From the NCBI GenBank assembly GCA_965112155.1, contig OZ218100.1: a stretch of DNA of 64,000 nucleotides; one strand, written 5' to 3'. Shown here piece by piece: positions 5,491 through 64,000 of this stretch. Source of the stretch: Podarcis liolepis. Taxonomy: Eukaryota. The position numbers and the translations under genes were made by a program. Numbering within the stretch: the stretch's first letter is position 1; each line of letters begins with the position of its first letter. Below the pieces are notes generated by a model that saw only the letters and a list, made by a program, of their open reading frames with translations, had not been told where the DNA came from and ran no database searches.

Positions 5491-5884
5491 TGTGACTTTT
5501 GGTTATTAGCCGTGACCCCCGCTAATTGATTTACGAACCTCGATTAGCGATTTATGGCTGACCGGTCCGGCGCGCTTCCCTCAGCTGCGCCACTCAGTCA
5601 CGGCTCAGCAGAGTTTCACACAGCGGTGTAGAACTGTCACCAGCTTGATTCAGCTTCCAGACAAACACACAGAGTCCAGCTTGTCTATTTACAGCATTTT
5701 ATTCCGACATTCCCCCAGGGATTTCCTGGGCTCCTCTCCGCCATTACAGGCTACGTCTCTTCCCCACGGAACACAGAGTGGGACTGGCAATCTTTTGCCC
5801 AAACTCCTCCCAGCTTCGAAAGCTGACGTCAGAATGCTGAGGCATCATGGGAACAACTTAACCAGTTAAGTTCCAACTCCCACA
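5491..5884 (-). repeat. 3' LTR of the copia element
   Basis: Direct repeat of 8124-8517, with one mismatch seen; minus-strand AATAAA at 5698-5703. Confidence 0.95.
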
Positions 5885-5922
5885 CCCCCTCTTGCATCTC
5901 ATTCTGACAAGACCCTCTGAGT

Positions 5923-6992
5923 TCAACACCTTCCCCTTTGCCTTGTGCCCCTCCCCGGCATCTTTCCCAGGCACCTGTTGAACCCCTTCAACACTCCCAG
6001 AATCACACTGTGCGACACTTTTCCACGCACCTGTGACCTGATACCAGCAGTTGTGTCTTCTCCGTCAGACTCTTCCCCCTCTGACTTGACAACCCTTCCG
6101 TGAGCTTTCTCCATTACCGGAGATGAAGCCTCACACCTGGACACTCCTTTCACAACTCTTGGAGATGCCCAAACCTGCTCTGAACCCTGATTCTGGACCT
6201 GGTCCCCATCACCGGGATCTGAACCCTGATTCTGGACCTGGTCCCCATCACTGGGTTCAGCCACAGCCTCCCTTCTCCCTTGAGAAGACTTTGCACCCGT
6301 CACCTGGTGACGTATTTCCTTTTCCTTGAAAAGTTCCTCCAGAGCAGACCCAGTAAACTGTGACCCTCGGTCGCTCTTGAACCCTTGCACCCTGGTGGAG
6401 AACCTTAGTTCCACCTCCGCAACCCAACCCTGGATCAGTTGCGCCACCTCCCCCTGTGATTTGAGAGAGAAACACCAGCCAACCTGGCTGTGGTTACCTG
6501 TCAGCGACAGCACATACCTGGCCCCACCCAGACTCTCAGACCTCTTGGGTCCTGACAGATCTGTGTGAACCAGCTCAAAGGGCTCTTTGGTTACCCTCCC
6601 AAACCCGGGAAAACCAAGCACCTTTGCACCTTTGCATGCCCTGCACCCTTGGGACCTCCTCCCACATTGTGTGATTTTACACCCTTTTGTGCACCTGTGC
6701 AACTTTTGCACATCTTTGGGAACCATAGCACACTGCACCTGTGCTTTTCCAGCATTCCCACCACCCTCCATAGGTGACTCCAGAACAAAGAAATTGTTCT
6801 TGCTCTTCGCCATGTTGACCCGTTGTCGCCCCCCTCTGAAAATGGAACAGGTGTCATTTTCAAAGCACATCTTTTGAACCCCTGCTTCGTTAGAGCAGAT
6901 ACAGATAACTGACAACTATTCAGTCCCGGCACAACGCAGATCTCTAGCTCCTCCTGTGAAGGAGAGAAAAAACATGTTAGCCAATAAAACAA
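5923..6992 (-). pseudogene. Degenerate copia pol fragment (post-protease region and rve integrase)
   Basis: ELVHTDLSGP...SLGGARYVL...W...VE...FKSDRGSQFT...IRHQVT matches the copia integrase core; VVPGLNSCQLSVSALTKQG resembles the copia VPxLxxNLLSV motif; frameshifted; 39-bp tandem duplication at 6179-6256. Confidence 0.85.
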
Positions 6993-8123
6993 TTGTTCCT
7001 GTTGAAAACAGCCCTGCAGTTCCGCAGCTTGCCTATCAGGTGCTGCCTGATAGCAGAAACCAAAACACCCAGCGTGTCATCGTGTCCTGACTGGAGTTGT
7101 TTTTCACAGTTGCCATAGAAGCAACAAACGTCCCGCTGCCTCAGTCCTTGGCAGCATCCGAAAACCGCAACATCCTGCGTTGCTCTGAAGACTGGACTTA
7201 TCTCAGAGTTCCCAGACAACTCTGCAGCACGTATCTCCCGCTGCAGCAGATGGCTGGCCTTGAAGCCTGGCAATGACGAACTCCAGTGGAAAAATACTGC
7301 TCCGGGGCTCCTCCCAGCTGGCCTCCTTCTCCTTCTTCCGGAAAAGCACTCCTTGCCAGCTCCGCCCCCTTTGAACCTCCACTTCATTCCAGCACGTACA
7401 GTGGAAAACTTTAAACGTGCCTTTGGAAACCTTCCGCCCCCCCGACCTGCTCAGCAGCACTCCTTGTGGCTAAAGCATCAGGGACAGGGGCTCCAGCCAT
7501 CTTTAGGCTTTTGTAGTCCTTCTCCAGGGCTCTGGCCTCCTGCTGAAGCTTCACAGCAAACACAGCAGTACATTTCCAAGTGCCAATAGTCCCTTTGCCC
7601 CCCCTCTGGGGCCCACAGCCTTTCCCAGCTGTGCACCGGCTCTCGCGTAGGTGATCAGCGCCATCTTGTCTTTCTGTTCTGAAGCAGCCATCTCCCGGCC
7701 CTTGCTTTCCGCCTCCAGCCTCACAAACACCCTGGAGCGCTGAACGGCCTCTGGCTTCCTGGCACCCAGAACAGTAGACTTCAGATCAGCAGCCAGGTTG
7801 CCCAACTTCTTAAAGTGAGCCTCCCACAGTCCTCCAAGACCTGGCAGCCTGCCATCCTCTTCCGTTCTCCCAAGGGGCCCCAAGCTGTACTCACAAGAAC
7901 ACCAGCTCATCCAGCACCCGTCCGGAGAAACGATTCCCTGCTGCTCTCAGCTCCTTGGCTCCACAGCAGTCCTCTGCGTTTTTCAGCCAGCCGCTTTTTT
8001 TAGCTCTGCAGCTCTCCTTGCCTCTTAACACCAGGCAAAAACCAACCACCATCTCCTGCCGAACTTCAAACGCATTCCGGCAGCCTCTTGTGACAGTTTT
8101 ACAAGCGATGATGATCCATAACC

Positions 8124-8517
8124 TGTGACTTTTGGTTATTAGCCGTGACCCCCGCTAATTGATTTACGAACCTCGATTAGCGATTTATGGCTGACCGGTC
8201 CGGCGCGCTTCCCTCAGCTGCGCCACTCAGTCACGGCTCAGCAGAGTTTCACACAGCGGTGTAGAACTGTCACCAGCTTGATTCAGCTTCCAGAAAAACA
8301 CACAGAGTCCAGCTTGTCTATTTACAGCATTTTATTCCGACATTCCCCCAGGGATTTCCTGGGCTCCTCTCCGCCATTACAGGCTACGTCTCTTCCCCAC
8401 GGAACACAGAGTGGGACTGGCAATCTTTTGCCCAAACTCCTCCCAGCTTCGAAAGCTGACGTCAGAATGCTGAGGCATCATGGGAACAACTTAACCAGTT
8501 AAGTTCCAACTCCCACA
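8124..8517 (-). repeat. 5' LTR of the copia element
   Basis: Direct repeat of 5491-5884. Confidence 0.95.
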
Positions 8518-24709: not shown

Positions 24710-27371
24710 CTTTATATTTTATACAATGCTAAATGATACTGCTTGGAAACCACATTTGTGCTGTCTTGGGTTCCATGATGTAAGAAAGGTGGGCTATAAA
24801 TGTAGCAATAAATTTGCAAATGTATGCAAAATCTGATGAAAAGGTAGTGGTGTGTATGAAGGAGTATAACACTAAAGCAGATTGGGTTTTTTTCAGAGAG
24901 TAAGATGCCCAGGAATGGGGAGGGGGATTCAGACAAAATGAAACAAAGGTGTAATGAGATCTCACTTGGGTCGTTTCCAGATGATTTGTTTATTGAGCAT
25001 TCACCCTGATTTGTTTGCACAAAGCTTGTAGGGAGGTTATACAGTGTCTGCTGTTTATTGAGTATTAATTCTGGGGTTTTTTCGGGGGGCGCTGGCCTGT
25101 TGGAAGCCATATAAAAAAAATGTTATCCCACATGTTCTAGTACATTTTTGCATAATTTTCCTTACCACAAAGGGACTGTTTTTCTCAAAGTGAGTTTGTT
25201 ATACAAGAGCACCAAATTCACTTTAATTGTGCAACCTGAATTTGCCGGTATGCAACTGAATCCATCCCACAAAATAGTGACAGCCTAGAAGAATTTTGGT
25301 GAAAATGTGTGAGTAGACCAATATGTAATCAGTTGTTTTTAAAGCAAAGGATATTGTGACAAATATGAGAATATCAGAACAATGCTCAAGATGGGAGCTG
25401 TCTGGGAGGTGTCAATGTATTTACACATGGTTACATGTCTATCCAGCTCTTCCTCCATGGAGATTAAGGCAGCATAATTTTTCCACTCCATAGTAGCCTC
25501 ACAACAACCCTGAGAGGTAGATTACACTGAAAGTGTGTGAGCAGCCCTATATCACTCAATAAGCTTCATAGCTGTTGCGATTTGAAGCTGGGTCTCTCCA
25601 GTTCACATCCACCACACTAAGCTGATTATCCAGATGCCTGTTCCTTGATCCCTATTTTTTGACATATACCTGCATTTGCAAAACAAGGTGGAATATGGAA
25701 TTAATTATGGGCTGCATAAGCTACTACTAGAAGATATTCTTGGAAGAAACAGGCAAAAATTATTCAACTCATCCCAGGCTTCCCAGTATATTCTCCAATG
25801 TTTTTTAAAAACATTATTCCATCTCTTTCTCTTTCCTCCCAGCATAATTTGAATAGTGCTGAATCAGCACATCTAGTTCTCAAAGAAAGTCTTGTGCGAT
25901 TCAGCCTACATTTGCAGTGTTGGGACTTTCCCTGGGAAAGCAAATTCTCATTTGTTTAAATGCAGCAAGGTTGTATTGTATGGCTTGGGGTAATTCTGGA
26001 CTGAGTAAATGAAACTAACACACAACACAAACATACATACAGTCCATTTGGCTGTCACCTTGAAGGCAATGCATACTTTTTGCAAAACACTGAAGTGTAA
26101 TTATTGGCTTTCCTTCTGTTTCACCAGTCCTTTCCTGTTGCTACCTTTAGATGCCCTTGGGAGATGGTGCTAATGAGATGACCTGCTGCCACCAATATCT
26201 GTCTCTTTAGGATTATGAAATTGAGTTGTTCAAGTGGATAAAGTCCAGAATTAGAAACTGTACGTCACCTGCATATTATAGCTACGTGATTCATTTAGAT
26301 TTGGCTGGTGACACACCTGTTTTGCATAAACATATTTTCTCACTGCTCCTCCTTAGAAAGGAATCTCTTTCTGTTAATGATGTTTTTCCAGTAATGCAAG
26401 AAGTGACCTATCAATCTTCTCCGTCTCTCCAATAAGAATGTATTAAGGAAGCAATTATCCTGTATTTGGATAAGAATTATTTTCCTCCCTTCCTTCTACA
26501 GTCTGCCTCCTTATGCTGGTTTGATTCCAGAAAATAAAAAGGCAGACCATAGTCTTATTTGGGGACCAAATTCTGCAGGTGAAGCATGTAAATCACAGTC
26601 CCATTCCTTCCTGCTGAAGAGTTTTCTTACACTCAAAAGTCTTCACACACCAACAGAAGGTGTAAAAATGCCTTCATTTCCTTTGAGACTGGCCCAAGGC
26701 AGAGAATGCATTTATGTCTCCAGACACTTCTGTTTCATTTGGATGAGCGTTTAGAACTTTTTTTAATAAATTAAGTGCAATAAGTAGAATGACCCTTTAC
26801 AATGTCTTCCTCTTCTTTGTGCATGCTGTCAGTCTGGTAAAGCCACTAGTGTACTCTACAAAAGGAGTACTTCTGTAGAATAAAAGATGTGGGCATGTGA
26901 TCAAATCAAGTCTGCATTCCTGTACATTTATAAAAAAGGTTATGTGGATGTACATGTACAGTCTTATAAGGCAGCCCATCCTTTGTCCAGGCGTTGCTCT
27001 TAGAACAGTCTTCCTAACTGCAATCTGTTAAGAGGTGATACCAATATCTTCCTCCCCTCAGCAGATTCAACTGCTGGAACCTAACTCTAGTTGTTTTTTA
27101 AATAAAGAGTTTATTATTATTATTAATATCATTTATTTTTTATACCCTGCCCATCTGGCTGGGTTTCCCCAGCCACTCTGGGCAGCTCCCAACAGAATAT
27201 TAAAAGCACAACAAAAGATCAAACATTAAAAACATTAAAAACTTCTCTAAACAGGGCTGCCTTCAGATGCTTTCTAAAAGTCAGATAGTTGTTTGTTTCC
27301 TTGACATCTGATAGGAGAAATAAAAAAATTCCTTCCAGTAGCACCTTAAAGACCAACTAAGTTAGTTCTTG

Positions 27372-27409
27372 GTATGAGCTTTCGTGTGCATGCACACTTC
27401 TTCAGATAC
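27372..27409 (-). ncRNA. Minimal hammerhead ribozyme motif (Penelope pLTR)
   Basis: Exact reverse complement of 28463-28500. Confidence 0.75.
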
Positions 27410-27735
27410 ACTGAAACAGAAGTTGCCAGATCCTTCTATATAGTGAGAAGGTGGGGAGGGGTGTTACTCAGAAGGGTGGTGGGAATGGGAGATAGGCAGA
27501 TAGGCAGATAGCTGGGAGAGCCTGTTGACGACTCTTAACGACTGTAATAGGTCTTACAGGAGAAGGCAAGGGGTGAGGAGGTGAGAAATGGTTTAGTCAT
27601 GTATAGTGAGATAAGAATCCAATGTCTTTGTTCAGCCCAGGTTTTTCCATTGTTTTAAGTTTGGTAATGAGTTGTAATTCAGCAGCTTCCCTTTCCAGTC
27701 TGTGTACACCTTGCCAGCTGGGCTGAACAAAGACA

Positions 27736-28134
27736 TCTTTGTTCATTTTTATTCTGGCTTCCTGTGGTGGTAATTGTGGTGGTAAATTTGTTTTATGATT
27801 TGTATGTAAGAGAGGTAAATAAAGTTCTGCAGAAGGATGATCATGTTATTGGCAGCTTTTTATAAATATAGCAAAAATAAAATGATCTTCAGTAAAAAGT
27901 CTCTTTTTAAAAATATAAACTTTCTCCCTAATTATAACCTTAATATTATTTGTTGGTAGCTTAAAATATTCAAAATGTTTGTCCATTGTTCGATTAATTG
28001 CAAAGTTCAATATAAAATGTTAACTTTCATGTGTTTTACTTGAAAATAGTTAAAATGTATTTAAACTGGAGGCTTCACTAAAATAAAGTCAATGCTAATT
28101 GTTCCTTCAATTGTAACAAAAGTATATCTTTCCA
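27736..28134 (+). repeat. 399-bp direct duplicate of 30628-31026
   Basis: Identical by eye from TCTTTGTTCATTTTTATTC to AAGTATATCTTTCCA. Confidence 0.95.
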
Positions 28135-28462
28135 ATGAATCCAATGTCTTTGTTCAGCCCAGGTTTTTCCATTGTTTTAAGTTTGGTAATGAGTTGTAAT
28201 TCAGCAGCTTCTCTTTCCAGTCTGTGTACACCTTGCCAGCTGGGCTGAACAAAGACATTGGATTCTTATCTCACTATACATGACTAAACCATTTCTCACC
28301 TCCTCACCCCTTGCCTTCTCCTGTAAGACCTATTACAGTCGTTAAGAGTCGTCAACAGGCTCTCCCAGCTATCTGCCTATCTCCCATTCCCACCACCCTT
28401 CTGAGTAACACCCCTCCCCACCTTCTCACTATATAGAAGGATCTGGCAACTTCTGTTTCAGT

Positions 28463-28500
28463 GTATCTGAAGAAGTGTGCATGCACACGAAAGCTCATAC
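28463..28500 (+). ncRNA. Minimal hammerhead ribozyme motif (Penelope pLTR)
   Basis: GUAU-CUGAAGA-A-GUGUG(CAUG)CACAC-GAAAGCUC-AUAC: catalytic core, stem II, stem I GUAU/AUAC and palindromic AGCU stem III. Confidence 0.75.
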
Positions 28501-30256
28501 CAAGAACTAACTTAGTTGGTCTTTAAGGTGCTACTGGAAGGAATTTTTTTATTTTGACTATGGCAGACCAACACGGCTACCTATCTACTATCTGATAGGA
28601 GGGCATTCCACAGGGCCGGTGCCACTACTGAGAAGGCCCTCTCAACAAATTGATAAAATAAAAAGTACAAATAAAGCAGCGGAACCCAACCATAGTTGAT
28701 TCTGTTTGGTAGGAGGAAAAAGTAACAAATAAGGAGGCTGGTTGGTTCTCTAGATGCACTGCTACAGGGCTTCCCACAGCATTATATTGTCAGTGTGGAG
28801 TGAGGGAGTTTGCCAAACTGGAAAGCTATGGAGACTCTTTACACTGGCATGACAGGCTGCAGAGAGGGATGAATGCCTCTAGAATGAGCAAGGAAATGGT
28901 TGGGCAAAACTCGCATACAGGATATAGCCAACATATTTGAATAACAGTGTTGCCAAAGCTGTTGGGATGGGATGGGATGGGAAGTAGTGAGGAGTGGAGT
29001 CACTTCTGAAATACGTGGCTCATGTGCAAGGAAGCCTTTAATGTGGCTACACCCCCTCTGTTCCCATCTGCAATGTTCTGATGACCCCTGTTGCTCATCC
29101 TTGATGTTCCTGAATTTATCCACCCATAGGATTGGTATCCTACCATTCTTAAAAAATATTTTCAGATTTTGAAAATATGGCTCCATTTGCCCTCATGTAG
29201 CCATTTGTTTTCTTTTATTTTAAAAAGAACATTTTGTTGGCTTGATATTGAAGCAAGTCAGAAGCTGTGTTTGCAATTTGGTTTTGTAAATATCAGTACT
29301 TCACTTACTTGCATGGGAAATGGTTGCAATTAGGAAAGTGGAGGAAACTGCAGGTGCCTGATCTCAGGTTCCTGATCTGCAACCACGTTGATGACAAGGG
29401 ATGAAAGCTGTGTACACCTTGCCAGCACAGCTAGGTTTTTCTTTCTCTCAATTTGGATTGAAGCAGTGTTTCATCAAATGACAGGATAGACATGGAATGC
29501 TGTGGCCACGCCACTTCCCAAACCAGTGGTGGGAGGGCACTGGATGCAGAGCAAACGAGAATGTGTACCCAGCCTAATTTTAAAATGGAAGGATTTGTTT
29601 CACAAGGTTGCAGTTTAATGGGTATCATGTTTCCTTCTCCCATATCTATCCTTCTGCCTTGATACATGGATTTGGGAGCACAGTCTGGAAATCTAGCATA
29701 TCAACCACACCTTACCTTCTGCTGATTTAGAGAAAGAAACCTATGATTAGGCAACAATTATAATGAGCACCACTATTTTTGAAATCTAAATGTTCTAGTA
29801 CAAGATTTGTCATGTCTTTGGTGCCCCCAATGAAATTTAACAGCAGGCCTATTTGGGTGGAATGTGACAAAAGACTGAAGCTTGAACACTGAGGAGGATA
29901 CGCAGAGAATAAGCTATATTTACTGCACAACCACTCTGGTCTAGCTAGGAGATATACATGTAGAAACAGGCATTCATCATGTATCTGTTCCATTGGATTA
30001 GGCAAGCTGCACATGAAAAGAGGGCCTATGCATGGTGGTGTGGAGTGTGTCCAACTTCTGGAGCTACATATGTATTTCCCAACACTGGATTTGGAACTTC
30101 TAGCAAACTCCACTTACAATGGTCCTTTTTGCCCATTCTAACAGCGTCAATCCCTTGTTTAGAGTGCCAGCAAAACCATCTCAATTGTGGGTATCACCTG
30201 TAAAAAGGCACATTCATACCTGTATCCAAAATAAAACGATTCATGGAAATTGTTAT

Positions 30257-30600
30257 TATTACTATTTATTAAATTTTTATGCCGCCCTTTATCCCTGGAT
30301 CAGAGGGTGGTTTACAATAAAAAGCAGAAAAATACATAGCATAGTACCAAACAAAAATAATACTGCCCCCCCCACCTAGTTTAAAAGGCCATCAGTTGCT
30401 TAATTAGCCAAAGCCCTGGAAGAAGAGGGATGATTTTGCCTGGTGCCTAAATATATGCAACCAAGATTCCAATTGAGGTTCACTGGGGAGAACATTCTGC
30501 CAGTGTGGGGCCCTTGCAGAAAAGGCCCATTTTCGTGTTGCCACCTTCCGGACCTCTTGAGGAAGGGACACAAAGAAGGGCCTCAGATGATGATCAGTCA
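30257..30600 (-). mobile_element. Old L2/CR1-like LINE 3' fragment
   Basis: TTTATT tail, TTTATGCCGCCCTT, ...TTTGCCTGGTGCCTAAA...GAAAAGGCCC similar to other squamate LINE ends; boundaries approximate. Confidence 0.5.
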
Positions 30601-33600
30601 ATGAATGCAGAGACACATTACTGTTATTCTTTGTTCATTTTTATTCTGGCTTCCTGTGGTGGTAATTGTGGTGGTAAATTTGTTTTATGATTTGTATGTA
30701 AGAGAGGTAAATAAAGTTCTGCAGAAGGATGATCATGTTATTGGCAGCTTTTTATAAATATAGCAAAAATAAAATGATCTTCAGTAAAAAGTCTCTTTTT
30801 AAAAATATAAACTTTCTCCCTAATTATAACCTTAATATTATTTGTTGGTAGCTTAAAATATTCAAAATGTTTGTCCATTGTTCGATTAATTGCAAAGTTC
30901 AATATAAAATGTTAACTTTCATGTGTTTTACTTGAAAATAGTTAAAATGTATTTAAACTGGAGGCTTCACTAAAATAAAGTCAATGCTAATTGTTCCTTC
31001 AATTGTAACAAAAGTATATCTTTCCAGAAACCTATAGCTTTGTTACTAATAGAGAAATATCAGGCCATTTCCTCTGTGTTCAGCTGAACTTCTGGTGACT
31101 TCTTGATATGTGAGATACAGATATTTCCACCATAGCTCTCTTGTTAAATTGGACTTCAGTGTTTCTGTCTCTCTTAGATAGGCAGGAAGTGTAGAAGACT
31201 TTCAATAACTAAGCCAGTGTTCTTAAGAGTATTTTGTACTTGACACTGCTATACATGCAGTATTTATAAAGTACATGTTTCTTTCAACATGTATACTAAA
31301 AATAGGGCACATCCACAGGCCTATCACAGGCTTGCCAGAAAAGACATGTCTGGTGTCAGGACACATCAGTAGTGACATTAATGGGGAGGTGAATGGCAGC
31401 ATCCCAAGAAAACTCAGCTTTGCATTCCAATAGCTCTGGTGCACTTTGTGATACATTGTCTGTGAGCAAATGGGGCAGTGGAATAAATGTAATGGTTTTA
31501 AAAACCTCCCCGGCTTCATTTATCAGTCGGTAAAAGTTCATGATTTCAAGCATGATGGATAAGAAGCATTCCCCTGATTAAAGTCACCATTCCCATGCCT
31601 CAGCTGATCTGAACCCCCCTTTAAATGGAGTCTGGTGCAGCCACGGGTGTAGCATGGGGGGCAGAGGGGCCATGGCCCCAGGTGTGGATTTCTGAAGGGC
31701 TGCTTCCATGCAGGAGACCCTATGTAGGCACCCCCAGCATGGTCCGGCCTGGCGGTCCCCTCCTGGTGTCAGAGGAACCAACGTTTGCAGAGAGAAACAC
31801 CAGAGTGTGCTGCGCTGGGGGTGCCTTCTTTGTTCCGGCCAAATGCTTTGTCGACTGGCTGGGTTCCCCCCTGAACAGGTAGGCAGGCTTAGCAGTGTGT
31901 GGTTGTTCCTTCTTGCGCTGGCGCCACCCTCCCTAGATCCCAGCCTTGTAATGCTGGTGGGGATGCAGTAGCCATGCACCCTTCGATCCCAGCTTTGCCT
32001 TTGCTGGTGAAGTTGGGATCGAGGGCACATGGCTGTTGCGTTCTTCTCGTGCCACCCTCCCTGTATCTGAGCCTTGCTGAGAAGAATCAGACTTGTAGCA
32101 TTGTTTTTCCTGCCAGGTGGTTACAGGAATGAATGCAGGTTGCTATAATCCTGTGCTCTTTCACTGAGCTATCAGTAGTGCATTTAGGTATTTTTCTACT
32201 CTGGGCTCAGTTGGCGCGGTGATCTTTGTATGGCAATGTGCAATTGCTTACTTCAAAGTACGATAAGCCAGACATGATGCATCTAGTTACATTTTCTGCT
32301 CATTCTGCTGAATGAGGTGCTGGACTTCTGCCCTGAAGTCCTGTCTTGATGGCACCACTGTAAGAAATGGGGACTTCAAGAATGAGAAAATGTGTATATT
32401 AGACTAACAGGTTTTAGCATTAATGCATTCACCAGTGGTTTATGGAGAGAGAAAAGCTGCAAACTTATGAGCACTTACCTTGAACTGTGTGTGTGCTTGA
32501 GTATACATGCATAAAATCATGCTAAAACTGATATTTGGATGTCTTTCACAGGATCGATGTACATATGTGATGATGGTGTTTTACATTGGTTTTTTACTAT
32601 GCCAATGTTTTAGCTGTTTTTTTCTATTGTATTGTTCAGATGATTAATAAATAACATAACTAACAAATAAAACTACATCACCCTACCCTCTGAAATTATT
32701 ACTAAATTATTACTAAAAAGGCATACAGTGATTGCTCCATAACTCTAAATTCCATGACTTAATAATTATACTTTTTTCTGCATATCCTAATATTGGTTAA
32801 CTTTGAACTTGACACTTGGCTACTTTTTAAAAATGTATTTTAGTGTTACACCTGGATTGTACATGTGGGCAGGAACCTTTTAATGTAAATTGAATGGTGA
32901 AGCTTTTAAATATGTTCACTTGCTCCTTTGAAAGTGTTACCTGACTTAGCATCTTACAGCAAGTGAGAGAGCAAATTGACGTTTTTATACACGTAGTTAG
33001 TGAATCTTGAAAATTAATTCCATTTAAAGGTAGTCTATTTTAATTCTGTGAGAAATTGAACTTTGCTTCTGAGTCCTGTAGGGTGTTAGGATGCTATTAA
33101 AAATTGGAGATTGGATTCCTTGGTCTGTGGTTGGTTGTCTGGACCCCTCTGTAAGGATATACAAAGCACACAAAGTCCTTCAGAAAAAAGGGCCCTCCAG
33201 CAATTTCTCTGAAGTATAGAAATAAGTCACGTTTATTTTCAGAAATGGTGTGTGGTTAGCAATAGCTCTGTGTGGGATCACATACCCCAGAGCTTGTTAC
33301 AATTTATAGCTTCCACTGTGAACAAATGCTGCCAATAAATCTGTTCTCTGTGTTTAAGTCCAGAGCCCAGAACAGATATAAATATAAAGTATTTATTCTT
33401 CAAAGTTTCATAATTTTCATTTTCTTAGTTTTAGCTGTTTTATCAATTTCTATACTGCAAACATTTTATAATATACTGTCTTTATCTTGATTGACATAAC
33501 TTGCTAACTACATGATCAGTTTTCTATCTGAAAACAGAATCCTGACTGAAATGTTTATGGGTCTTTAGTACACAGAGTATAGCAGCAGCATGATTTTAAC

Positions 33601-38522: not shown

Positions 38523-39449
38523 ATATGTTGCCCATCTTACTGTGTTATCCCAGTAAATATAATAAACAATTAAATTAGGTCCATTTTCAATGAGTCTACA
38601 TACATACATACATACATACATACATACATACATAATTTTATTTGTATGCCACCTTTCCATAGTTAAAACCATGCTCAAGGCAGCTTACAACATGAAAAAT
38701 AATTACAAACATAACAAAAGTAGTCATAAACAATAACACATTAAAAAGTAAACAATCAAATCAAAACTATTTCCACATACATTTCCGCATAATAAATCTA
38801 AACTAAAGATTAAAAAATATCAATAATAGCAGTAACAACACCCCTCCTTGGCCAAAAACCCCCAACTTCCTTCTAATCAATACCCAGCGGGCTCAGCTTT
38901 TGTAGCTGGAGTCAGTCAGGGCTCTGCCTTTCTAGGACAGGTGGAAAAATAATGCAAGGCAGGGAGCAGGTCTTCCAGCACTCGCAGTCAATCTGGTGCT
39001 CTGAGTAAAACATAGCTGAACACTACCCAGAGCATCTGAACATCTTTATTTCCCCATTTGTCATCCTTTGGTCAATGTCAGTTGAGTCAATGTCAGTTGA
39101 CTTGAGTCAATGTCACCACTACAAAATTGGTTACAATGGTGACTACGGAAAATTAACATTTAAAATGCTCTGCCTTAAAAAAAAAGAAGCTAGGCAACAG
39201 TTATTCATTAAGTTATTAATTCCATTTCAACCGTGTTTGGTTCTCCCTCTTAGAAAGAAACTGAAACCCATTTGTTTCTGAAAGCTTTTAATGGTTGTTT
39301 GACTGACCATGTTGCCACCTCAGGCTTTAAAGCTTACTTTATTATATATATTATATATTATATATATTATATATATTATATTATTACTTTATTATATATA
39401 TATATTACTTTATTATATATATTATATATTACTTTATTATTATATATTA

Positions 39450-39545
39450 TGTATCTGAAGAAGTGTGCATGCACACGAAAGCTCATACCAAGAACTAACT
39501 TAGTTGGTCTTTAAGGTGCTACTGGAAGGAATTTTTTATTTTTAT
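39450..39545 (+). mobile_element. Short Penelope 3' fragment with hammerhead motif (39451-39488)
   Basis: Essentially identical to 28462-28552. Confidence 0.9.
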
Positions 39546-40666
39546 TATATATGGTGTTGAATGGCTGCTTTTAATATAAATGGCTGTTTTGTTTTTTGTT
39601 TTTGTACACTGCACTGTGTGCAACTGCAGAGGAGGGAGATACAAGAAATATTACAATTACAGCAACTTCTTTCTTCGCAGTTTAAAGGCCGGGGGTGGAG
39701 GAGAGAAAGATATTGCCTGTGTGACTTGAAGATTGCAGTTACAAACCTCATCCTACATAGGTTTCCTTAGATATTTCTGGACAAGATCAGGTTTTATTTT
39801 CCAGGCTAAAATATGATCAACTGGAATTTTGTCATCGGCCTTTAATGAGGACATCTAAAATACCACCAAATTCTGTCATGTTGTTCATGTATTTCCTTTG
39901 TAATAAACAGAAGTGTATTAATTGTCACTCCCATAATCTGCCAACTTCCCCCCATTAATTTTTATTAATTTTTCAAATTTATAATCTGCCAATGTTTCTT
40001 TTAGAAACATTTCAGTTCTTCTGTTTCTTCATCTTTAAGGGTTCATTCAGTCATCAGGTAATGGTTCTGACTAGTACTCTGATCCTAAACATTTATAACT
40101 CTGTATTTTGTCAGGGATGTTAACTAGCTTTGCTAACATCCTGCTTTGTGTTCATTCTGAGAACCTAGGCTGATGTAGTAAAGCATAGCACTGGACTTTA
40201 GAAAGTCAAGATTATTTAATTTTCCTCAACAAATAACATTATGATAAAAATAACAATTCAGCCTCTATCTCCTCAGCCAAATCTGTGCTTCTCTGTTTTC
40301 TAAGCTTTTGCTCACTGTAGCATTAACAGGACGAGGGAAACCTTTCAGTTTTGTGTATAGTTACATCCATGACAGGGAATGGTGAAGTTCACAACTGGCT
40401 TCTAAGTGTTCACCAAAAGAAATATTGGATGGGAGGACTCTTGTAAAATAAAATAGTTCACATTTTGTTTTTCTACTTAAATTTCCATTTTTATTCATAA
40501 ACATTATTGTATGCAAAAATCCCTTATTCCTCACTTCCCTTGTTTTCTCCTCTGTTTTGTTTTTAACCAGCAAGTAGCGCACTTTTAAACACTAGAAAAT
40601 CATTGAACAACAATAATAATACATTGCTAACCACAAATGTAAGAGTCTAAGAGCCAGGCCATGATA

Positions 40667-44057: not shown

Positions 44058-44730
44058 CAAACCCTCCAACATTCCTCAGATGAAAATAAGGACATTTCTT
44101 ACTCCTCCCCAACAGACCCTCCTCAACCCCCCCTTTTTTGTTCCCCTCCCTGCAGAGCATTTCCTATCAGAAGAATGGTGAGTGCCATCACCAATGGGAC
44201 ACAGCCCACACACCCTCCACTGTCCTGAGAAAACTCCTTAATCCTGCTTTTGTTTTATTCTTTGGTAGGGTTACAAAAAGAAAAACATACACCAAGAAAT
44301 AAATTTTAGAAAAGAGGATTGAATGCGGATGCACAAAGCATTCTTTAATTTAAAAAATCAAGACTCCTTGCGCTCCGCTCTACCACTCCTTTGTTCCCAC
44401 CAAGGGCGGCCCTGCCCTCTGCCTGCCTCTCGGAGACAGTGGGGCTGGGCCTCAGTGGCAACAGCCTCTTCTCCTCCTCATCCGCTCTCCAGCAGCTGCT
44501 ACAAGCTGCCCAAGGGAGGAGGCCAGCGGCAGCAGTCCTGGAGAGGCCATGGGGTGCTCCCTCGCCACCACCTCTGCTCGGGACAAGCCCCAGCTCACCC
44601 TCTTCTTCAAGCTCAGCAGCAGCAGCAGCAGTAGCAGGGGAAATAGGGACAGTTCGAGATGAAATCAGAAGCCGGGATGGCTTTCTTAATTCCGGGTTCT
44701 CCCTGGAAAATCAGGACACTAGAAGGGTAT
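44058..44730. mobile_element. Non-autonomous DNA transposon with GC-rich interior, nested in an older MITE
   Basis: Ends CAAACCCTCCAAC / AGAAGGGTAT; flanking GGACAATG / GGACAACG; halves of the older MITE at ~44005-44057 and ~44731-44800. Confidence 0.65.
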
Positions 44731-61960: not shown

Positions 61961-62103
61961 CATGGGTGTAGCCGGGGGGGGGGCAGCTGCCCCCCTAGAT
62001 CAAGTAAAACAATAGAAATACTTAACTAACTGATCAATCACATCGGTTCTGCCCCCCCCCCCCGGTCTTGCCCCTCCTAACAAAAATCCTGGCTATGCAC
62101 ATG
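61961..62103. mobile_element. hAT MITE
   Basis: TIRs CATGGGTGTAGCC / GGCTATGCACATG; TSD AGGGGCAC / AGGGGCAG. Confidence 0.8.
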
Positions 62104-62175
62104 AGGGGCAGAGGATTTTAAAATCTGTTCAAGGAGAACCCTCTGAAAGCTTATTGCAGCTACCTTCAAGTAGAA

Positions 62176-62910
62176 CAGTGTTTCCCAACCGGTGTTCCGC
62201 GGCACACTAGTGTGCCGCGAGACGTTGGCTGGTGTGCCGTGGGAGGGAGGCGGGCGAGTCGGGCGGCGAGAGGCGGGGCGGCGGCGGCAAGGATCCGCGT
62301 AGAGCCGGGGGCGGCTCCGCGGTGGTGGTGCCGAGGTTTCTCTCTCCATTCTCCCCTCACACACACACACAGGAAATAACACAGGATCAGCTGACAGGAC
62401 CCGGCCAATGGGGCGGCGGCGGGGCAGCGCGCGCAAAAGGGAGGAGCGCGAGACAGCGGACGAGGAGGAGGCCGGCATGTCCGGGCAGCAGCAGCAACAA
62501 CAGCAGCAGCAACTCCCGGCGGCGGCTCCTCAAGCCCCGGGCAACCCTACTACCTCACCGGCCTCAGCCGCCCTCCTGCTCCACCCGCCGCCGCCTCCCC
62601 TGCCGGCCACCTCGGCCCCGCCGCCGCCCCCTCCTCCGCCCGCTATCGCCGCCACCACCACAACAGCCGCCGCCGCCTCAGCTGCCGCTGTCCCTCAGTC
62701 CCTCGCTTTGCTGCCTCCTCCCCCCCCCACCCCCAAAGCTTGGAGGTTCCCCGGCAAGGGGAAGGGGAAAAAATTGAAACTTACACTTTCGTGCGTCCCT
62801 CCCGGCGTGACGCTGCGCGCTGACGTCACGGGGCTGTAATGGTGGTGTGCCTCGAGATTTTTTTCATCAAACAAGTGTGCCTTTGCCCAAAAAAAGGTTG
62901 GGAAACACTG
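62176..62910. mobile_element. Non-autonomous hAT (Buster/Charlie-type) element carrying host-gene cargo (Pack-hAT)
   Basis: Perfect 15-bp TIRs CAGTGTTTCCCAACC / GGTTGGGAAACACTG; perfect TSD AAGTAGAA (central TA); subterminal GTGTGCC repeats; very GC/CpG-rich interior. Confidence 0.95.
62477..62700 (+). pseudogene. RANBP9: Captured RANBP9 (RanBPM) exon-1 N-terminal coding fragment inside the hAT element
   Basis: MSGQQQQQQQQQLP...AALLLHPPPPPLPATSAPPPPPPPP matches the human RANBP9 N-terminus as recalled (MSGQ-polyP/Q...AALLLHPPPPPPPATAAPPPPPPPP); the downstream SPRY-leading sequence is absent. Confidence 0.75.
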
Positions 62911-64000
62911 AAGTAGAAGATCTCTAATAGTGGATAAAAAAGCTTGACCTCCATTACTGTCATGGAAGACTTAGTGGACATTCAAGTCAAGAATTGCCCC
63001 GCTCAAGCAGAATGCAGCACCAACAAAAAGCAGAAAATATGGTGCCGATTTGCAAAATTGAATAAACAATATATGCAAATATATAAATAACTATTGATAT
63101 CTGAGCTATACTGCCACTAAACATGGAGGCTCAATTTATTTATTAGTAGCATCAAATACCCGGCACTGCCTGCAAATTTGTAGAAACCACACAATATAGT
63201 AATTTTTTTATGTGATTTGTGAGTTTGGGCCTATCATGCCAAAAACACTATCTTTTTGTGTTTTTATGACTGCTATATCTGATTCTGTCTTATAACTTTT
63301 TGTTATATTCATGAGACTTGCCTTTTATTCAGTGTTTTTGCAGCTGTAGTGTGCCAATAAGGCAGTATATTAAAGAAAGGTCCTTGTATTACTTTTGCCA
63401 TATTTGGTATATGTAATAGTCTTGTAATGTTTTGCATGGAGTTCTCTATAATATTCATTGTGTGGCTACACTGGTGTTTTAAAAGTATACTCTCTAAACA
63501 ACAACAGCAACAAAGTAGCCTCTGTTCGCCATTGCGGATTCATGGTACAATAGACTGCATTTAATTCATAAGAAAGGCAGGAACTGAACATTTTGGAATG
63601 AAATTTGGGTCTCAGTCTTTATAAATAAATGACAGTTATATGGCAGAAATAGGCAATTTCTTCAGCACTTAAAACCATGCAGAAAACCCATTAAGCTTGA
63701 TGGCTGTTTCTTCAATTTGCTAATTTTTGTTTTTCTGCAATACAGTTTTGTGTGCATTTGGTAGACAGCATCATTTAGCTGGCATAGAAGAGATATCATA
63801 AATACTGTACCACAGTTTTTATGTCAAGTATGATCAGACATGAACCAAACTATATGCCAAATGCGAAGCAGATCCCATATTTTAATACTTGGAATAAGGT
63901 ATAACCAGCAGTTACATAACTGATTATCTTATTCTGGACACAGCATTGCTTACTGTTGGAAGAACATTGCAAATCTTCATTCTATATGCTAGTGGCATGT

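Follow-up and report, generated by a model that had tools for sequence, protein, structure and literature searches.

A Penelope-like insertion in Podarcis liolepis with copies of two stretches of flanking host DNA at its inner junction

The window, that is the whole stretch of DNA analysed, comprises 64,000 nucleotides of Podarcis liolepis (GenBank assembly GCA_965112155.1, contig OZ218100.1) without any N and contains an insertion in which two inverted arms of a Penelope-like element (PLE) flank copies of nearby host DNA. The target-site duplication (TSD) ATCTGATAGGAG, 12 bp in length, is present at 27306-27317 and 28590-28601 as an exact sequence match in the assembly and bounds 1,272 bp. 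Another copy of the family (L044) contains a frame of 857 amino acids with matches to RVT_1 (E 9.8e-12) and GIY-YIG (E 3.2e-5), consistent with one open reading frame (ORF) encoding a reverse transcriptase (RT), with a GIY-YIG domain at the C-terminus. The arms in the window are 97-99% identical to L044 and retain merely the last codons of the ORF, the left arm lacking the last 35 bases of the right (L044 positions 6127 and 6162 for the two ends). The window copy has the features of endonuclease-containing (EN+) PLEs, namely a family ORF with RT and GIY-YIG, an inverted 5'-truncated copy, a tail of 30-40 bp at one end and a TSD. A CX2-5CxxC motif between the RT and GIY-YIG domains defines the Neptune and Nematis clades (PMC8557442). 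The motif CNKPRCQLC at residue 717 of the L044 frame fits both clades and does not tell one from the other. The parts of the insertion and the donors of the host copies are as follows.

27306..27317, + strand: left TSD ATCTGATAGGAG, 12 bp, the most frequent length in the family (57 of 160 TSDs)
27318..27699, - strand: left arm A, antisense 3' end of the element (ORF end and pseudo-long terminal repeat, pLTR), tail absent, from alignment with the element
27700..27718, + strand: templated insert F, copy 1, exact match to 29408-29426
27718..27736, + strand: B1, the first 19 bases of the sense arm, with one base shared on each side
27724..27745, no strand assigned: fold-back palindrome TGAACAAAGA-CA-TCTTTGTTCA over the B1/D junction, from the sequence
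27736..28134, + strand: templated insert D, 399 bp, exact copy of 30628-31026
28135..28136, + strand: AT filler of 2 bases, inside TCCA-ATG-AATCCAATG
28137..28221, - strand: A2, in which the inner 85 bases of the left arm recur
28222..28240, + strand: templated insert F, copy 2, exact match
28240..28589, + strand: right arm B, 3' end of the element in sense orientation, tail present, from alignment with the element
28467..28499, + strand: hammerhead-like core motif (CTGA-GA, short stem, GAAA) in the pLTR, from a motif scan; mirror copy in the left arm
28590..28601, + strand: right TSD, exact match
29408..29426, + strand: donor of insert F, 819 bp past the element end, exact match
30628..31026, + strand: donor of insert D, 27% GC, intact, exact match

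Comparison was made with 197 other loci of 9-10 kb, comprising 39 best matches, 66 from the first 100 of 201 and 92 from the first 100 of 830 exact tail matches, a sample skewed toward young copies and first contigs. The parsed loci numbered 182, with flanks of median length 4.8 kb upstream and 4.0 kb downstream and of at least 2.45 kb downstream in 181; the remaining 15, in which no tail was recognisable, were left unparsed (four junctions were inspected by eye). The two arms in the window are complementary over ~315 bp; they differ by no substitution, and the left arm contains one duplication of 8 bp. This duplication and the C at 27690 are private to arm A, each being found in none of the 197 other loci, whereas A2 has the family allele T at the counterpart position 28212. 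The junction is repeated over 122 bp (27615-27736 and 28137-28258) with one mismatch, at 27690/28212. All parts therefore appear equally young, there being no substitution between the arms, none in the 399 bases of D and one in the 122 of the junction repeat. An earlier note on this DNA had described the TSD, the arms, the 399-bp copy, the 122-bp repeat with its single mismatch and the palindrome, and each was borne out by exact matches in the assembly. The target site lies inside another dispersed repeat (27133-27317 and 28590-28640), of which high-depth contigs join 27312 to 28601 in uninterrupted form.

Insert D is identical to 30628-31026 at 399 of 399 positions with an offset of 2892 bp, placing the donor 2039 bp beyond the element end. 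The stretch had two matches only in the 1.57-Gb assembly, both in this window. The 19 bases at 27700-27718, which the earlier note had correctly located and described as filler, are an exact copy of 29408-29426, for which 1.8e-7 matches are expected by chance in the window and which matched its own flank better than any of the 182 swapped flanks. The locus therefore has two local donors, both downstream, in direct orientation and intact. The junction of arm A with F has no copies in the genome besides the two at this locus. At donor sites that vary among the contigs listed for four sequencing runs, the inserts carry the alleles of the window (C at 31025, where X16, X1 and X2 have T; G at 29425, where X1 and X2 have A), which fits copying from the haplotype of the window and would fit an artefact as well.

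The overlaps at the successive junctions are 4 bp from A to F (CTGT, the first 4 bases of F copy 1, being common to the continuation of the element), 1 bp from F to B, 1 bp from B1 to D, and none from D to A2, where the 2-base filler intervenes. The 10-mer TCTTTGTTCA had been taken in the earlier note as a microhomology shared by the element and the donor. Its occurrence is indeed not a matter of chance (2.2e-6 per site); however, it spans no junction and is the reverse complement of the 10 bases just before the 2-base loop. Since the direct overlap at 27736 is 1 bp, either a fold-back or a step between two molecules must have made TCTTTGTTCA first. Most simply, B1 would have folded back at its end, and the 10-mer made in this way would then have primed on the donor. 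The palindrome TGAACAAAGA-CA-TCTTTGTTCA folds with a 9-bp stem at -6.9 kcal/mol, and its loop and first pair come from arm B only if the top strand was synthesised from left to right, which favours that direction. B1 itself would represent an aborted start of arm B, and the AT filler fits a short slip on the sequence of arm A.

Among the parsed copies inverted arms are the family norm (132 of 183, this locus included) and 138 of 160 TSDs, again including this locus, are 12-15 bp long. The 157 inner junctions, three of them from this locus, comprised 73 with overlaps of at least 2 bp, 24 that were blunt or overlapped by 1 bp, and fillers of 1-7 bp (30), 8-49 bp (23) and at least 50 bp (7). Short re-copied pieces are common at these junctions. 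Twelve of the 22 fillers of 8-49 bp in other copies match sequence no more than 60 bp away (p<0.05, against a weak control), and direct repeats of at least 15 bp lie in the junction zones of 12 of 129 inverted copies, this one included (L108, L127 and L213 were excluded from this count), versus none of 1290 control windows. At one locus (L173, 4790-4872) the filler is repeated together with the arm end, as in the window. Distal copying gave a different result: none of the 39 fillers of at least 8 bp in other copies matched the distal flank better than swapped flanks, and an insert templated by the distal flank was found in none of the 182 other parsed copies, the short flank matches of L098 and L156 being confined to within 22 bp of the site. 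In this sample, a survey of inverted junctions for local DNA, which the earlier note had proposed on a genome-wide scale, finds it in the form of short re-copying and not of distal inserts. With 0 of the 128 other inverted copies affected, the rule of three puts the frequency of distal inserts under about 2%. At four loci (L063, L083, L100, L125) the junction contains a jump to distant element sequence.

Several long gaps were rejected as local captures. At L108, two distinct insertions, each bounded by a TSD of its own, enclose 391 bp of flank, and what fills the gaps of L080 and L127 derives from another dispersed repeat. In L080 (5316-5651) a GC-rich piece of such a repeat follows a 33-bp tandem repeat, occupies the precise position of the arm junction and may be a captured template or a later insertion; no near-identical copy close to L080 was listed among the 40 of 1541 candidates scored. 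Multi-round junction patchworks with fold-backs and arm restarts were observed at L227 (4200-4380), L128 (5005-5086) and L173 (4790-4872). Palindromes with arms of ~1.6 kb and spacers of 9-51 bp are present in the assembly at L041, L040 and L095.

No hammerhead was matched in a scan with Rfam models, although the core motif is present by its pattern; an Rfam match to srg1 was attributed to chance (20.8 bits versus 70). Many short copies among L132-L223 break, in one or both arms, near L044 position 6034, the 5' edge of the hammerhead-like motif. These breaks suggest that self-cleaved RNA served as template, in contrast to what PMC11167929 reports in vitro. At 39334-39548 of the window, a short fragment of this PLE family that lacks the tail also starts at the hammerhead-like motif and adjoins an AT-rich microsatellite.

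The proposal of the earlier note that template switching copied local host DNA into the element is supported twice, by F and by D. With moderate confidence, the locus is interpreted as a young two-armed insertion in which the host copies arose by repeated microhomology-primed copying and release while the cDNA ends were joined during integration. From the observed pieces and overlaps we infer the following order of steps, with their timing and enzyme. The target strands would have been cut 12 bp apart, each priming one cDNA to give arms A and B. The end of A would have paired through CTGT at 29408 and copied F, then paired with the end of cDNA B so that both ends could be extended, the top strand by B1 and the bottom strand by 104 bases or more of F and A. 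Once this joint had separated, the top end would have folded back to make TCTTTGTTCA, primed at 30628 and copied 399 bases. A slip at TCCA/ATG followed by re-annealing to the extended bottom strand, which repeats A2-F-B, would complete the structure. The short rounds would resemble the work of polymerase theta; the 399-base round probably required a polymerase of higher processivity, acting on an end that had been resected or on a sister chromatid that had been invaded.

In vitro, a PLE protein from a lizard cuts the two strands of the target and extends both (PMC11167929), an activity that explains the pair of arms and the intact TSD. Synthesis-dependent microhomology-mediated end joining (SD-MMEJ) is characterised by snap-back inverted repeats and inserts of several rounds (PMC2943611), and aborted rounds yield longer microhomologies that prime the following round (PMC7165422). 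The microhomologies, fillers and restarts left by joining across the family, together with these parallels, are the grounds on which the locus is read as one prolonged joining episode. Moreover, F can only have been acquired when A was joined to B, which would tie distal copying to joining at least once. As to timing, the family survey leans toward integration over a later event.

Several points weigh against joining in a single episode. The separation of the joint requires that a 122-bp duplex be unwound or re-cut, and a later break explains the duplication equally well. Inserts made by polymerase theta are usually 3-30 bp and reach 157 bp, with templates within ~30 bp and fewer than 0.1% distal (PMC7165422, PMC11541566), so that 399 bp copied at 2 kb lies outside this range. 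A hairpin with a 2-base loop is poor, and for such palindromes a route through the sister chromatid is proposed in PMC11541566. As no other parsed copy has a distal insert, the order of steps rests on one locus. The control behind the 12 matching fillers is weak, and some of the 12 junction repeats may derive from the hammerhead palindrome or a microsatellite (L203, L036). Finally, when the contig sets of the four runs (X15, X16, X1 and X2) were placed on 26900-31400, no contig listed spanned a junction of the insertion, and the structure is thus confirmed in the assembly only. The interior of the insert had zero depth, most likely because matching sequence was assigned to the donor, and the arms were overwhelmed by other copies of the family; contig placement therefore neither confirms nor refutes the junctions. 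In X1, a contig that begins at 28590 and leaves 3 letters unfitted is a hint of an empty allele, too weak to count.

The main alternative, which we consider rather unlikely, is that the insertion formed in two steps. Integration would have given A-F-B, with arms of ~320 bp and a spacer of 77 bases, and a later fork stall or break at this hairpin would have added D and duplicated 122 bp, lengthening the spacer to 599 bp, by switching of the type known as fork stalling and template switching or as microhomology-mediated break-induced replication (FoSTeS/MMBIR). Rearrangements of that type combine a tandem duplication with a local insert of several hundred bases and short microhomologies. The product here likewise reads as a clean tandem duplication of 122 bp whose copies are separated by D, the bases that pair with arm A in the hairpin are precisely those of B1, and a replicative polymerase suits a copy of 399 bases. 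However, 16 of 36 long-armed copies (at least 250 bp), some with 1.6-kb arms, keep spacers of 77 bp or less with no such insert, and two rare distal copies would have to arise at one locus at different times when none of the 182 other copies has even one. The parts also show no difference in age, a comparison of poor resolution.

It is improbable, as a second alternative, that the RT of the element made all the jumps, from element RNA to nearby single-stranded DNA or to a nascent minus-strand transcript of the locus. Both donors are direct copies of the top strand, the orientation this predicts, jumps to distant element sequence occur at the junctions of the four loci mentioned above, and extension of ends on DNA templates is reported for L1 ORF2p (PMC11702581). 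Nevertheless, the repeated A2-F is not explained by RT jumps alone, and neither a gene nor a minus-strand transcript was found around the site in a search that covered the sequence only.

The possibility that D and the 122-bp repeat are an assembly artefact, the product of a chimeric read or mis-join, is judged very unlikely. D is 100% identical to its donor and, in X15, which matches the window haplotype almost letter for letter, the donor contig continues without a break from 30600 to past 31400, no branch being listed at either end of D. Yet contig building may lose low-depth links beside a repeat of very high copy number, one base differs between the junction copies, and a fold-back palindrome, a 2-base filler and a second donor would be unlikely inventions of an assembler. 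The window is free of N and the assembly resolves the 1.6-kb palindromes of this family. A weak point on the same side is the X15 depth of 29.4 on the donor contig versus 19.4-23.3 on the other long unique contigs listed, a rise that was not seen in X16, X1 or X2.

True transduction, with D and F carried in by the transcript of a source element, has next to no likelihood even though PLEs can mobilise host DNA between pLTRs (PMC3846280), since both donors lie less than 2.5 kb from the target site, neither D nor the A/F junction occurs at a third place and the inserts carry the alleles of the window haplotype. D occurring just twice in the genome, with the donors at the target site, the captured DNA has not moved to new sites, and the suggestion in the earlier note of a route to transduction found no support here or in the 182 other copies.

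The insertion shares with those described for EN+ PLEs with inverted pLTRs (PMC8557442, PMC3846280, PMC11167929) a 5'-truncated sense arm with tail, a tail-less inverted arm, a TSD and an ORF with RT and GIY-YIG; it differs in a junction with host copies from 0.8 and 2.0 kb and in the duplication of that junction. Host spacers (Pen1_Av) and host genes moved in trans are described in the available parts of the same sources, and copies of target neighbours are not. In L1, templated inserts from near the target are reported in 22 of 3,598 insertions (bioRxiv 10.1101/2024.08.27.596794) and in 3 cases (PMC11702581). The likeness lies in the copying of genomic DNA near the target during integration and in a similar rarity, here 1 of 183 with the locus itself selected. 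L1 templates are typically shorter than 250 bp and within 15 bp of the site, whereas the present case involves 399 bp at 2 kb, two donors and another class of element; the supplementary figures of the L1 papers may hold distal templates. The locus resembles SD-MMEJ and theta-mediated end joining (PMC2943611, PMC7165422, PMC11541566) in its aborted rounds, direct and fold-back repeats, newly made priming microhomology and AT-rich template. Its inserts repeat nearby sequence, F with overlaps of 4 and 1 bp and D with a 10-bp fold-back primer and the slip at TCCA/ATG. In contrast to templates within ~30 bp (PMC7165422), 19 bp were copied here at 819 bp and 399 bp at 2039 bp. From FoSTeS/MMBIR, named in PMC11541566, it differs in that the rearrangement lies wholly within a TSD-bounded retrotransposon insertion. 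A literature search of partial coverage found no account of inversion junctions of PLEs that contain locally templated DNA. Inverted PLE insertions and local templated inserts in L1 were thus known already, and this locus adds the length, two donors, a readable series of steps and a bound on frequency.

Elsewhere in the window, 165 open frames of at least 62 amino acids in 9-46 kb gave one weak Pfam match only, and no gene was found around the site. That match, to the N-terminus of RHINO at 31723-31932 on the minus strand (17.8 bits, below the cut-off), is a chance match or a decayed copy; as the real gene is located on contig C9, it was not considered further. No homologue was found for the frame at 44348-44710. 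An element of the long terminal repeat type at 5491-8517 has 394-bp terminal repeats (TG...CA) with one mismatch and a 5-bp TSD (CATTA), and a frame on the minus strand matches integrase (rve) weakly (E 1.7e-6, below the cut-off); the element is young and internally shortened. A CpG island with low-complexity open frames at 62001-63000 is possibly a gene start.

The insertion is a single rare scar, and the captured DNA has not spread; a potential to move host DNA between pLTRs would rest on PMC3846280. It is unlikely that a free PLE cDNA end, perhaps on its own RT, repeatedly scans and copies several kb of flank and so places host DNA between pLTRs in a form mobile in trans, but if it does, such scanning would be the first step of the capture of host genes that has been reported in PLEs. 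The locus bears more directly on how PLEs finish integration, as it records about six successive priming events. Together with the survey, it indicates that the two cDNA arms are sealed by sloppy end joining that occasionally reaches more than 2 kb into the flank, a pattern that would fit two-ended priming better than self-priming on one RNA.

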